64,000 bases of DNA, taken from sequence record PZ386965.1; one strand, 5' to 3'. How positions within the stretch are numbered: position 1 is the stretch's first letter; the number at the start of each line of letters is the position of its first letter. The notes beneath the pieces were generated by a model, which was given only the letters and a program-made list of their open reading frames with translations, searched no databases and had not been told where the DNA came from. Position numbers and translations under genes: made by a program. Shown here piece by piece: positions 4,538-39,176 of this stretch. Origin of the DNA: a phage.

Positions 4538-6109
4538 ATGAAATTTAATATCTTAAGTTTGTTTGCTCCATGGGCAAAAATGGACGAACGTGATTACAAA
4601 GACCAAGAAAAAGAAAATTTAGAATCTATCACCACACCAAAATTAGACGACGGCGCTAAAGAATACGAAGTATCTGAAAATGAAGCACAGCAAACATATA
4701 ATGCTATGTTTCAGAGAATGTTCGGTAGTCAAGAACCAGGGCTCAAATCAACCCGTGAATTAATCGATACGTATCGAAATTTGATGACGAACTATGAAGT
4801 GGATAATGCAGTCTCTGAAATAGTTTCTGATGCTATCGTATATGAAGATGACACAGAAGTCGTTTCTATAAATTTAGACAACACAAAATTTAGTCCAAAT
4901 ATAAAATCAATGATGTTGGATGAATTTAACGAAGTGTTGAATCATTTATCTTTCCAACGTAAAGGTTCAGACCATTTTAGGCGTTGGTATGTAGATTCTC
5001 GAATTTTCTTCCATAAAATTATTGACCCTAAACGCCCTAAAGAAGGTATTAAAGAGCTTCGTCGTTTAGACCCACGTCAAGTTCAATATGTCCGTGAAGT
5101 TATTACAACCACTGAAGCCGGTGTTAAAATAGTCAAGGGTTATAAAGAATATTTCATTTATGACACATCACACGAATCTTATGCTTGTGATGGCCGCATA
5201 TATGAAGCTGGCACAAAAATAAAAATCCCTAAAGCCGCGATTGTTTATGCCCATTCTGGTTTAGTTGATTGTTGTGGTAAAAATATCATCGGTTATTTGC
5301 ATCGGGCTATTAAGCCGGCGAACCAATTAAAACTTCTTGAAGATGCCGTCGTAATTTATCGTATTACTCGTGCTCCTGATCGTCGTGTATGGTACGTTGA
5401 TACAGGTAATATGCCTTCAAGAAAAGCAGCAGAACATATGCAGCATGTTATGAATACGATGAAAAACCGTATTGCATATGATGCTACTACAGGCAAGATT
5501 AAAAACCAGCAGCATATTATGTCGATGACCGAAGATTATTGGTTACAACGACGTGATGGTAAAGCAGTAACAGAAGTTGACACATTACCAGGTGCAGATA
5601 ATACTGGAAATATGGAAGATGTACGTTGGTTCCGTAATGCGCTTTATATGGCTTTACGTATTCCTATTACCCGTATTCCAAGTGACCAAGGTGGTATACA
5701 GTTTGATGCTGGTACTTCTATTACACGAGATGAATTGTCATTTGGTAAATTTATTCGTGAGCTGCAACATAAATTTGAAGAGATATTCCTAGACCCGCTT
5801 AAAACTAATTTAATTCTTAAAGGAATTATTACAGAAGATGAGTGGAATGATGAAATAAATAATATTAAGATAAAATTTCATCGGGATAGTTATTTCTCGG
5901 AATTAAAGGATGCTGAGATTCTGGAGCGTCGCATTAATATGCTTCAGATGGCCGAACCATTTATTGGTAAATATATTTCTCACAGAACAGCTATGAAAGA
6001 TATTCTTCAGATGTCTGACGAGGAAATTGAACAAGAGGCTAAGCAAATTGAAGAAGAGTCGAAAGAGGCTCGTTTCCAAGACCCCGACCAAGAACAAGAG
6101 GATTTTTAA
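4538..6109 (+). CDS. 20: portal vertex protein (gp20)
   Basis: 523 aa, T4 gp20-like; position between gp19 and prohead core genes. Confidence 0.93.
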
Positions 6110-35060: not shown

Positions 35061-35642
35061 TTATTCACCACAAAAGTTTCGGATTTGTTCCCAATTCAGA
35101 GAACGAAGATTATTACGAGAGTACTGAATTACTTCAATACCGGCTTGTTTTAGAATGTCTGCCCAATTTTCAGGAGATCTGTCATATAATTCTGCATATA
35201 CAACCTTTTTAATACCTGACTGTGTAATAGCTTTAGTGCAATCAGGACATGGAGAAAGCGTCGTATACAACGTAGCACCTTCAATAGAATTACCTTTACG
35301 AGCTGCAAACAAAATTGCATTCAATTCCGCATGGATTTCATTATTAGCAGACCATGCACTATGAGCGGCCCGATGTTCTTTAGCCAAAACAAAATTATCC
35401 ACCCGTCCAAATGCTGTAGTGCCTTCTTTATGCCCAGCAACGATGACCGGGCTTGGTTTATTCTTCAACCAACCGTTTTCGGATGCATGTTCGCAACAGT
35501 TTGTACCACCTGAAGGAGAGCCATTATAACCTGTAGAAATAATGCGTCCATCTTTTTCAATGACGGCACCAACTTTCCATGAACAACATTTTGATTCTTG
35601 AGAAATCAGATAAGCAATCTGAAGATATGTGCTAGCTTTCAT
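35061..35642 (-). CDS. cd: dCMP deaminase
   Basis: 193 aa, same as T4 Cd; HAE and PCxxC zinc-binding deaminase motifs. Confidence 0.93.
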   Translation of the reverse strand: MKASTYLQIAYLISQESKCCSWKVGAVIEKDGRIISTGYNGSPSGGTNCCEHASENGWLKNKPSPVIVAGHKEGTTAFGRVDNFVLAKEHRAAHSAWSANNEIHAELNAILFAARKGNSIEGATLYTTLSPCPDCTKAITQSGIKKVVYAELYDRSPENWADILKQAGIEVIQYSRNNLRSLNWEQIRNFCGE

Positions 35643-36634
35643 TATTGAACCTTATTAATATGAGTTAACAGCTCTTTAGTTTGTTCCCAACTGATGCACG
35701 CATCGGTAACGGAAACGCCATAGGACATATTATCAGAAATTTTTTGATTTCCTTCATGTAGGAATGATTCTATCATAATTCCTTTGACCAAATCATTAGC
35801 TGCTAAATTTTTACCAATACCAATTTGATTGCTATAATGCCCAGCAGCGTTTGCATGGCTACAGTCAACCATTACATAATGATTCAGACCTACGGCCCTT
35901 GCTTTGTTAGAAGCTTCTTGAATATCAGAAGAATGATAGTTCGGGCCATTGGTCCCGCCACGCAATACGATATGCGTATTCTGATTACCTTCAGCTTCAA
36001 CAATGCCTACAGTACCATCGACGTCCATACCCATATACCGATGAGGCCAGGCGGCACTATACATCGCGTCTGTAGCTACTTTAATAGAACCATTGGTTGC
36101 GTTCTTGAAGCCTACGCACATCGGTAGACCTGAAGCAATTTCACGATGTGTCTGACTTTCAGTCGTACGGGCGCCAATAGCAACCCATGAGAAAATACCA
36201 GAAAGATACTTAATCGTGAATGGGTCTAATACTTCAGTTGCTAATGGAAGTCCCATACGTAGAAGTTTACGACACAATGTTCGTGCAACTATAAGACCGT
36301 GGTTCATATCAAAACTTCCGTCAAGATATGGATCATTTACAAGACCTTTCCAACCTACGGTAGTTCGAGGCTTTTCAAAATAAACGCGCATCACTAACAG
36401 AACATTAGGAAGACGAGTTTGAAGTTCAGCCAGACGTTTGCCGTATTCAACAGCAGCAATAGGGTCATGAATTGAACAAGGACCTACAACAATAAGTTTG
36501 CGTGGGTCTTCACCATTCATAATCGAATTAACTTGTTCGCGATGAGAAGCCACTTGTGATGCGTAAGCTTCCGACAAAGGAATAATCTCAGCCAGTTCTT
36601 TTGGAGAAATAAGTTTTCCGACGACAGGTAACAT
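35642..36634 (-). CDS. 3-deoxy-D-arabino-heptulosonate-7-phosphate (DAHP) synthase, AroG/AroF-type
   Basis: 330 aa; LIVVGPCSIHD, RVYFEKPRTTVGWKGL and WVAIGARTTESQ blocks align with E. coli AroG; N-terminus about 8 residues shorter than AroG; not present in T4. Confidence 0.85.
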   Translation of the reverse strand: MLPVVGKLISPKELAEIIPLSEAYASQVASHREQVNSIMNGEDPRKLIVVGPCSIHDPIAAVEYGKRLAELQTRLPNVLLVMRVYFEKPRTTVGWKGLVNDPYLDGSFDMNHGLIVARTLCRKLLRMGLPLATEVLDPFTIKYLSGIFSWVAIGARTTESQTHREIASGLPMCVGFKNATNGSIKVATDAMYSAAWPHRYMGMDVDGTVGIVEAEGNQNTHIVLRGGTNGPNYHSSDIQEASNKARAVGLNHYVMVDCSHANAAGHYSNQIGIGKNLAANDLVKGIMIESFLHEGNQKISDNMSYGVSVTDACISWEQTKELLTHINKVQ

Positions 36635-36754
36635 AACAATCCTTAGGAGATATAAACAGATTCTGATTCAACAATACCTTTAACCGGATTAGACAGGCTA
36701 AGTTGGTAGTGCTCAGATTTATGACCATTCTCGATAGTAATGAGATAGCTCTCG

Positions 36755-36991
36755 TTATAGTGTTCCATATACTCGAGTTGCTTCAACAAGACCATCACTG
36801 CCTAATTTAAGATTAGTAATTTGGTCACCATCTTTAGGATTTACAATTATGAGAAAAGAACGTGGAGATTCTTGAATAACTCGTAATGTTGCATCCTGGA
36901 AACGTTCAGATACTTTATTAATCAAAGTCTGAGCGAACTCTTTTACTTTAACATGAAATTCTTGAAGCGTGATAGGTTTTTCACTTAACAT
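36755..36991 (-). CDS. hypothetical protein (78 aa)
   Basis: ATG start; early promoter upstream. Confidence 0.5.
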   Translation of the reverse strand: MLSEKPITLQEFHVKVKEFAQTLINKVSERFQDATLRVIQESPRSFLIIVNPKDGDQITNLKLGSDGLVEATRVYGTL

Positions 36992-37020
36992 TCTGTTTTC
37001 CTCATTGTGTTGGTAGAGTC

Positions 37021-37050
37021 ATAGTATCACAACTCCACCATGTTGTAAAC
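37021..37050 (-). promoter_or_regulatory. T4-type early promoter for the 78-aa ORF / DAHP synthase / cd unit
   Basis: GTTTAC, 18-nt spacer, TACTAT. Confidence 0.55.
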
Positions 37051-37052
37051 CA

Positions 37053-37328
37053 TTAAATTGCTTTGCATTCAATTTTTTGTGTACCGAAATTGATATCACA
37101 TTGGATAACTAAATCGCCGTCAAGATCAAATACCACTATGACGTGTGCAGACCCAGGGAGAAGAGTAATAGCAATAGAATCTACTTGGTCCGGGAGCAAA
37201 GCATTGAGTACATGAGTTAGTTGAGCATGAACTCTGAGTTCGGCTGCATTATCAAGCACTTCAAACATATTATTAGCAATAATCTGACTGAAGACTACCT
37301 TTACAATTTCAGAATAAGTTGGGAACAT
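37053..37328 (-). CDS. hypothetical protein (91 aa)
   Basis: ATG start. Confidence 0.5.
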   Translation of the reverse strand: MFPTYSEIVKVVFSQIIANNMFEVLDNAAELRVHAQLTHVLNALLPDQVDSIAITLLPGSAHVIVVFDLDGDLVIQCDINFGTQKIECKAI

Positions 37329-37335
37329 AATTACC

Positions 37336-37560
37336 TCAGTGTACAGTATTTACTTTAACTCGAACAACAAATCGCTCGGTCGGTTCACCTACAGGAACAA
37401 ACTCTACATGATATTCGCCTTTGTAACGAGTATTCAGATCATTACGAATTCCTGCGAGTTTGTTGATTAATGTAGGACTCATATTAAGTCCCACTAGTTT
37501 ACGAAGCATTTTGTATGCTTCATCTTCGATTTCATGATGTTTATCGTACATAGTTTTCAT
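37336..37560 (-). CDS. hypothetical protein (74 aa)
   Basis: ATG start. Confidence 0.5.
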   Translation of the reverse strand: MKTMYDKHHEIEDEAYKMLRKLVGLNMSPTLINKLAGIRNDLNTRYKGEYHVEFVPVGEPTERFVVRVKVNTVH

Positions 37561-37731
37561 TTAACCATTCAATTGCCTGGTCGACGTTATCAAATATACC
37601 GCCGTCCAACCATTCTTCATGTTCATAGTCCAGCACATCAATACCGAACCGTCCATTTACTAAAGGCCATACTACAAACAAATATTCTTTATGCCGTTCA
37701 ATGGCCTCGATCACTTCGTATAATCGTTTCA

Positions 37732-37732
<1 letters not shown>
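37541..37732 (-). CDS. hypothetical protein (63 aa)
   Basis: ATG start, directly downstream of pseT. Confidence 0.5.
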
Positions 37733-38818
<1,086 letters not shown>

Positions 38819-38819
<1 letters not shown>

Positions 38820-39118
38820 TATTTTATTCCTAAGAAAATTTCAAGAATACGAATGTTATGCTCGCGCCGGTCTTTATTAATTTCAGCAACGTTTTTATTA
38901 ATTGACGTACTTCTAACGTTTGAAGAAATAAATTTAATCATATGACTTTTGAGTTGTTGCAAATCCAACCCTTTTTCTTTAGCAGCTTTACGAAGAGCTT
39001 TACCTGCTTCATCTAGTGCCTTTGCTGCATCTTTGTCATAATTGCCAAGTGACATTCCACGACAGATATCAATATACTCATCAGACCGTTTGATGTAATT
39101 CTCTAGTAATGTTTTCAT
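38819..39118 (-). CDS. hypothetical protein (99 aa)
   Basis: ATG start; early promoter upstream. Confidence 0.55.
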
Positions 39119-39146: not shown

Positions 39147-39176
39147 ATTATACTCTGCTCCCGAGAGTTTGTAAAC
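39147..39176 (-). promoter_or_regulatory. T4-type early promoter
   Basis: GTTTAC, 18-nt spacer, TATAAT. Confidence 0.5.

Follow-up and report, generated by a model that had tools for sequence, protein, structure and literature searches.

This locus raises the question of whether the small open reading frames (ORFs) between pseT and cd in a T-even phage form a gene set of their own or correspond to the set known from T4. The sequence in question is a stretch of 64,000 nucleotides (nt) from phage record PZ386965.1, which as a whole is called the window in the following, and the interval of interest lies at positions 36,755 to 37,732, followed by a gene for a 3-deoxy-D-arabino-heptulosonate 7-phosphate (DAHP) synthase and by cd. 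A first-pass annotation had described four ORFs of 63, 74, 91, and 78 amino acids (aa) between pseT and the synthase gene as a replacement of the T4 cd.1–cd.5 set at a variable locus where the metabolic gene was acquired, with an early promoter between the 91-aa and the 78-aa ORF. The four ORFs, their coordinates, and their location on the minus strand could be confirmed. The replacement could not, as T4 cd.4, cd.3, and cd.2 have orthologues in the same order among the four ORFs. We suggest that the interval is, very probably, the Mosigvirus form of the conserved T-even early-gene cluster extending from pseT to cd, and the DAHP synthase gene with a leftover fragment of a foreign cd.2 is the only added piece at this locus. 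Little is at stake in this correction, which amends the impression that the gene set differs from that of T4; the cd.x assignments are already present in the GenBank records of PhAPEC2 and RB69, and the arrangement is known. What the comparison adds is that the pseT–cd interval is a slot-wise mosaic common to T-even genera.

Judged by its sequence the source of the window is a Mosigvirus, that is, an RB69-like T-even phage: the 4-kb stretch around the locus has 98.6% identity to Escherichia phage vB_EcoM_PhAPEC2 (NC_024794) and 97–98% identity to many other Mosigvirus phages. All genes of the region are located on the minus strand. In the order in which the genes would be transcribed, the features are:

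37732–38631, minus strand: pseT, polynucleotide kinase/phosphatase, the upstream boundary (74% identity to T4 PseT, E 2e-167)
37541–37732, minus strand: cd.4 orthologue, 63 aa (BLASTP against T4 Cd.4, 52% identity over 63 aa, E 8e-27)
37336–37560, minus strand: RB69ORF227c homologue, 74 aa (phrog_3609, E 3.5e-41)
37053–37328, minus strand: cd.3 orthologue, 91 aa (79% full-length identity to T4 Cd.3, E 9e-50)
37021–37049, minus strand: early-type promoter, TTTACA-17 nt-TACTAT (promoter scan and alignment with T4)
36755–36991, minus strand: cd.2 orthologue, 78 aa (67% identity over 72 aa to T4 Cd.2, E 5e-32)
36746–36757, minus strand: left 12-nt repeat of the cassette (junction compared with empty-site phages)
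36643–36768, minus strand: probable cd.2 remnant, 41-aa ORF (Pfam DUF7320, profile positions 44–76)
35642–36634, minus strand: type I-alpha DAHP synthase, 330 aa, the cassette cargo (TIGR00034 aroFGH)
35633–35644, minus strand: right 12-nt repeat of the cassette, TAATGAAAGCTA (RB69 identity restarts exactly there)
35061–35642, minus strand: cd, dCMP deaminase, the downstream end of the unit (71.5% identity to T4 Cd, E 1e-108)

The four small ORFs each match a PHROG family (E 2.5e-33 to 3.5e-41), and in comparison with their orthologues from other genera the proportion of nonsynonymous differences (pN 0.13–0.30) is far below that of synonymous differences (pS 0.61–0.96), as is also the case for pseT and cd. 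Thus, they are real genes under purifying selection and not chance ORFs. The 63-aa ORF belongs to the T4 Cd.4 family (phrog_2360, E 2.5e-33); the Pfam family PF26883 is recorded as a precomputed match on 16 of 16 relatives and was not found on the 63-aa ORF itself in our local Pfam scan. The 91-aa ORF matches DUF7355 (domain of unknown function, DUF; PF24051) with 119.4 bits over profile positions 1–93 of 93, and the 78-aa ORF, located directly downstream of cd.3 and its promoter gap, matches DUF7320 (PF24005) with 122.7 bits over positions 1–77 of 78, the cut-off being 27 bits in both cases. A paralogous relationship between cd.2 and cd.3 was rejected (hhalign probability 1%).

An upstream ATG in T4 (L001, about 5251–5275) opens a frame M-L-L-S-E-K-P which matches the cd.2 start M-L-S-E-K-P in the window (36975–36991); the GTG annotated as the start of T4 cd.2 is in a different frame. 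These sequences suggest that T4 has a 1-nt indel in cd.2, close to its 5′ end.

The 74-aa ORF is the exception among the four. Its protein is 100% identical to RB69ORF227c and belongs to that family, with homologues of 65–68% identity located directly upstream of cd.3 in Pectobacterium phage PM2, Enterobacter phage CIP9, and Edwardsiella phage PEi20. Compared with the proteins of the T4 cd–pseT region it has no match; as a candidate for T4 Cd.5 or Cd.1 it was rejected, with no match to Cd.5 and a match to Cd.1 of only five residues (E 7.2). It is also not a diverged cd.5, because homologues of cd.5 and of ORF227c coexist in CIP9. The true start of the ORF is likely to be the second ATG at 37551, giving a protein of 71 aa; the homologues in other genera start at MYDKH, and the annotated length is 71 aa in PhAPEC2 and 74 aa in RB69. 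No homologue of T4 cd.1 or cd.5 is found anywhere in the 64-kb window.

According to the first-pass annotation, one-to-one homology of all four ORFs with T4 genes would leave only the synthase as novel. This homology is found for cd.4, cd.3, and cd.2 and is missing for ORF227c, and with three of four ORFs being one-to-one orthologues in the same order the proposed replacement is largely refuted. That a different, non-homologous set displaced T4 cd.1–cd.5 upon arrival of the metabolic gene can hardly be correct, although ORF227c is without a T4 homologue and the window as a whole contains neither cd.1 nor cd.5. Besides the three clear orthologues, RB69 holds the identical four ORFs without a synthase, and therefore the four ORFs did not come with the synthase. 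In addition, CIP9 has both ORF227c and a cd.5 homologue, and EcS1 and CHI14 have both the synthase and cd.1 homologues.

The gene maps of other T-even phages (T4, RB69, PM2, CIP9, PEi20, EcS1, and CHI14) together with pairwise comparisons point to a fixed series of slots, namely cd.5, cd.4, ORF227c, cd.3, cd.2, DAHP synthase, and cd.1, of which each genus carries a subset in constant order:

T4: cd.5, cd.4, cd.3, cd.2, and cd.1 present; ORF227c and synthase absent
RB69: cd.4, ORF227c, cd.3, and cd.2 present; cd.5, synthase, and cd.1 absent
The window: cd.4, ORF227c, cd.3, cd.2, and synthase (after the probable cd.2 remnant) present; cd.5 and cd.1 absent
CIP9: cd.5, ORF227c, cd.3, cd.2, and synthase present; cd.4 and cd.1 absent
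PEi20: ORF227c, cd.3, cd.2, and synthase present; cd.5, cd.4, and cd.1 absent
EcS1: cd.4, cd.3 (longer form), cd.2, synthase, and cd.1 present; cd.5 and ORF227c absent
CHI14: cd.3, cd.2, synthase, and cd.1 present; cd.5, cd.4, and ORF227c absent
PM2: ORF227c, cd.3, and cd.2 present; cd.5, cd.4, synthase, and cd.1 absent

In CIP9 the cd.5 homologue follows pseT, and in EcS1 and CHI14 the cd.1 homologue is located between the synthase and cd. As both genes coexist in these two phages the synthase is not a stand-in for cd.1. The longer cd.3 of EcS1 (L009 1799–2260) is the C-terminal part of a 153-aa protein with about 70 additional N-terminal amino acids.

The window shares with T4 (NC_000866) the gene order, the strand, and the flanking genes pseT and cd. 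In T4, however, cd.5 lies between pseT and cd.4, cd.1 separates cd.2 from cd, and ORF227c and the DAHP synthase are missing. RB69 (NC_004928) has the same four ORFs with 95% DNA identity, but it lacks a cassette of 1,113 bp, and its cd.2 and cd overlap as TAATG. In PhAPEC2 (gp181–gp185) the entire arrangement including the synthase is found and the homologies are annotated, the 41-aa ORF being left unannotated. The genera Kanagawavirus (CIP9, PEi20), Kagamiyamavirus (EcS1), and Winklervirus (CHI14) also have the synthase between cd.2 and cd, with 67–77% protein identity. In these three genera, however, a full-length cd.2 precedes the synthase, whereas here a truncated second cd.2, of the PM2/CIP9 type, comes after a cd.2 of the T4 type.

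The cluster is tightly packed, with stops and starts overlapping or closely coupled: the cd.4 start overlaps the pseT stop as TAATG, and the same overlap is found between the synthase stop and the cd start. The early promoter proposed by the first-pass annotation between the 91-aa and the 78-aa ORF is present in the 61-nt gap between cd.3 and cd.2 as a promoter-like site, TTTACA-17 nt-TACTAT (37049–37021, minus strand). Aligned with T4 and RB69 this gap has a mean column identity of 81% with both hexamers kept, and the T4 record places the early promoter Pe133295 between cd.2 and cd.3. The site thus has the features of a T4-type early promoter, that is, a GTTTAC-like −35 element and a TAnnnT −10 element 17 nt apart in an intergenic position conserved with a T4 promoter. 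On the minus strand no terminator-like site is found between 39500 and 34500. In the 120-nt spacer between cd.2 and the synthase there is no Rfam match, and it folds no better than shuffled sequence (z = 0.31); a structured RNA or a terminator in this spacer is ruled out by these same results. Because the promoter is conserved with T4, no terminator-like site intervenes, and the synthase and cd overlap as TAATG, a unit of cd.2, synthase, and cd is reasonable, and the promoter plausibly feeds these three genes as a unit. Transcription of the cluster probably starts at upstream early promoters, and from cd.2 onward the cd.3–cd.2 promoter probably contributes as well.

That the locus is variable and had gained the synthase gene, as the first-pass annotation claimed, is borne out by RB69, in which cd.2 directly abuts cd. 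The RB69 sequence matches the window at 95% identity down to position 36740 and then again from 35645, with 19 nt of RB69 sequence common to both matches. The segment in between, consisting of the 41-aa ORF and the DAHP synthase gene (1,113 bp), is a cassette with a 12-nt repeat at each end. Its left bound is TAA(C/T)GAGAGCTA (36757–36746) and its right bound is TAATGAAAGCTA (35644–35633). The left repeat reads TAACGAGAGCTA in the window and TAATGAGAGCTA in PhAPEC2, G2285, TH58, and two IMG/VR contigs, and it consists of the stop of cd.2 and, directly behind it, the first cd codons in a decayed copy. A scan for this junction in IMG/VR yielded only these two contigs, too few for testing an association of the ATG of the 41-aa ORF with the cassette, and GenBank phages were used instead. 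Among the records compared, about 140 carry the filled site and 11 records from about six distinct phages, including RB69, JK36, JK42, moha, and ECO111 5-P, carry the empty site. The mar005P1 records LR027383–LR027391 have the empty cd.2–cd site and OZ035759 (Mosigvirus mar005p1) has the cassette; therefore, either the cassette varies within one named species or isolates have been labelled differently.

The simplest and most likely account of these junctions is one illegitimate joint at the short microhomology TAATGA(A/G)AGCTA. Such a joint would link an RB69-like genome, in which cd.2 abuts cd, with a Kanagawavirus-like genome carrying a divergent cd.2, the synthase, and cd, and of the foreign cd.2 it would leave the 3′ half, a remnant of 41 codons. 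The donor-type cd.2 would end in ...SYLITIENGHKSEHYQLSLSNPVKGIVESESVYIS, adjoining the DAHP synthase. The scar of the cassette, that is, the 12-nt repeat and half of a foreign cd.2, would then record the move of a metabolic gene between T-even lineages.

The 41-aa ORF, which was overlooked in the first-pass annotation, is located in the 120-nt spacer. It matches DUF7320 with 28.8 bits (cut-off 27) at profile positions 44–76 only, and because only the truncated C-terminal half is matched it is a fragment and not a complete member of this family. It also matches phrog_15876 (E 4e-32). Its identity to the C-terminus of cd.2 is 54.5% over 33 aa for PM2, 51% for CIP9, and 30% for the T4 type; outside T4 no match to the family of the resident cd.2 was found. 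The first five codons of the ORF are the end of the resident cd.2 read in another frame, and the junction between the fragment and the synthase is collinear with the junction between cd.2 and the synthase of CIP9. We suggest that the 41-aa ORF is probably a remnant and not a gene. The ORF is intact in about 140 records (138 at 95% identity or higher) and is called by some annotators, its stop is located 8 nt before the ATG of the synthase beside the ribosome-binding site TAAGGA, and its own ATG was made by a synonymous TAC-to-TAT change in cd.2. One could therefore imagine that the ORF still functions as a gene, encoding perhaps a micro-protein or a leader which couples translation into the DAHP synthase. 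We consider this improbable: all copies are found in near-identical genomes, so that the conservation carries little weight, and in G2285 and TH58, both carriers of the cassette, the ATG is replaced by ACG. Moreover, no convincing ribosome-binding site precedes the 41-aa ORF, and the synthase has a ribosome-binding site of its own.

The probable remnant is followed by a well supported DAHP synthase, which exceeds the cut-off of TIGR00034 aroFGH (428.4 versus 173.2 bits) and of NF009395 (456 versus 343). Among solved structures E. coli AroF (6AGM, E 8e-105) is the closest relative. The gene has a GC content of 41% and a GC content at third codon positions (GC3) of 29%, similar to the neighbouring phage genes. 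The synthases of CIP9 and PEi20 in the same slot have 76–77% identity to it, and relatives with 60–77% identity are found in T-even phages of Enterobacter, Edwardsiella, Klebsiella, Serratia, Erwinia, and Providencia. A recent capture from the host was rejected on the basis of the GC3, the distance from E. coli AroF, to which it is far from identical, and the presence of the synthase in several phage genera; judged by its sequence the synthase is long resident in phages. According to the 6AGM alignment the phage enzyme starts about nine residues later than AroF and has K for Q at AroF position 152, P for S at 181, and M for I at 213. Changes in AroF at or near positions 152, 181, and 213 and at the N-terminus give tyrosine-insensitive enzymes, and the phage DAHP synthase may therefore escape feedback control.

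Several observations weigh against our reading of the locus. In no phage was a full-length donor-type cd.2 found next to this synthase. Moreover, the synthase is 77% and cd 79% identical to the respective Kanagawavirus counterpart, and as the synthase is no more similar to its counterpart than cd is, nothing shows a recent transfer. The empty site could arise from the filled one by deletion between the 12-nt repeats, and since the repeat would allow such a precise deletion the recombination may have run in either direction. As to the promoter, the scan by itself gave 15 sites with 14.7 expected, which is not above chance, and both the promoter and the operon structure are predictions from the sequence. 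Finally, for the four small ORFs the Pfam matches are only to DUFs, NCBIfam and PADLOC gave no match, and sequence searches of the PDB yielded no significant match for any of them, nor for the cd.4 profile.

The question of direction leads to a different history of the locus, in which the synthase is ancestral in the Mosigvirus slot, a deletion between the 12-nt repeats removed it from the RB69-like phages, and the remnant is the original Mosigvirus cd.2 left behind after a cd.3–cd.2 segment of the T4 type had recombined in. The occurrence of the synthase at this position in at least three further genera, the excess of filled (about 140) over empty (11) records, the direct repeat itself, and the composition of the synthase, which fully matches that of the phage, are all in agreement with this history. 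On the contrary, at the left junction the first 10 nt of cd are fused after the cd.2 stop, which presupposes a parent with cd.2 already adjoining cd, that is, the empty arrangement. In addition, an intact donor-type cd.2 is not known from any Mosigvirus. We thus regard an ancestral synthase as possible yet rather unlikely and favor the gain of the cassette by an RB69-like genome.

As to the functions of the small proteins, searches of the literature on cd.2–cd.5, DUF7320, DUF7355, RB69ORF227c, and phage DAHP synthase yielded nothing relevant. For ORF227c the AlphaFold2 model (predicted local distance difference test score, pLDDT, 86; two helices and a hairpin) has no significant Foldseek match in the PDB. 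The four would most likely be small, probably dispensable early proteins which bind and modulate host or phage proteins.

The predicted structure of cd.4 might give a hint in one case. Its AlphaFold2 model (pLDDT 93) has an alpha-beta3-alpha topology, and although there is no significant Foldseek match, its closest resemblance is to the T7 dGTPase inhibitor Gp1.2 (PDB 7U65, 2MDP; PF10922), with which the predicted model shares the fold. This could mean that cd.4 is a functional analogue of Gp1.2, that is, a small early inhibitor of a host enzyme degrading deoxynucleoside triphosphates (dNTPs), for example Dgt, which would protect the dNTP pool of the phage. We judge this to be unlikely. The two proteins differ in length (63 aa for cd.4, 85 aa for Gp1.2), there is no detectable sequence relationship, and the Pfam scan gave no match of cd.4 to PF10922. 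Homology at the sequence level was rejected at the available sensitivity, as the profile–profile comparison by hhalign with deeper alignments of both families gave a probability of only 0.2–0.4%. Among the 50 best Foldseek matches of cd.4 in the PDB no Gp1.2 chain is found. The fold is moreover a common one, as dsRBD and HPF match cd.4 and Gp1.2 alike (PMC9478638); because the authors of the Gp1.2 study report the same structural neighbours for their protein, the shared fold is best seen as a common small fold (PMC9478638). In Gp1.2 a free N-terminal tail G2–G7 (G2-R3-L4-Y5-S6-G7) enters the active site of Dgt (PMC9478638). The cd.4 model shows no such tail and is helical from residue 2: the N-terminus in the window is MKRLY, modelled in helix 1, and it differs within the family, in T4 as well as in other relatives. 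The more specific proposal that cd.4, which is conserved beside genes of nucleotide metabolism in T-even phages, inhibits a host dNTP-degrading enzyme such as Dgt or a defence dGTPase in the manner of Gp1.2 is slightly less probable still. If true, cd.4 would represent a second family of phage dNTPase inhibitors, alike in fold and unrelated in sequence. The predicted fold is a lead of low probability, cheap and testable, to a possible dNTPase inhibitor in T4-like phages.

The cd.4 profile also matches several long proteins of 516–2,984 aa (P0090, P0102, P0105, P0107) in five to nine repeated stretches. These stretches cover the acidic D-x-L-D-Y-E...D-G-G region and are possibly an unrelated acidic repeat.

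A second variable slot, adjoining the pseT–cd slot, is the interval between pseT.1 and pseT. Here RB69ORF230c and ORF231c (63 and 99 aa; 38628–39118, minus strand) are located, and T4 has nothing at this place. The best early-promoter match of the region, TTTACA-17 nt-TATAAT (11 of 12 positions), at 39175–39147, precedes these two genes.

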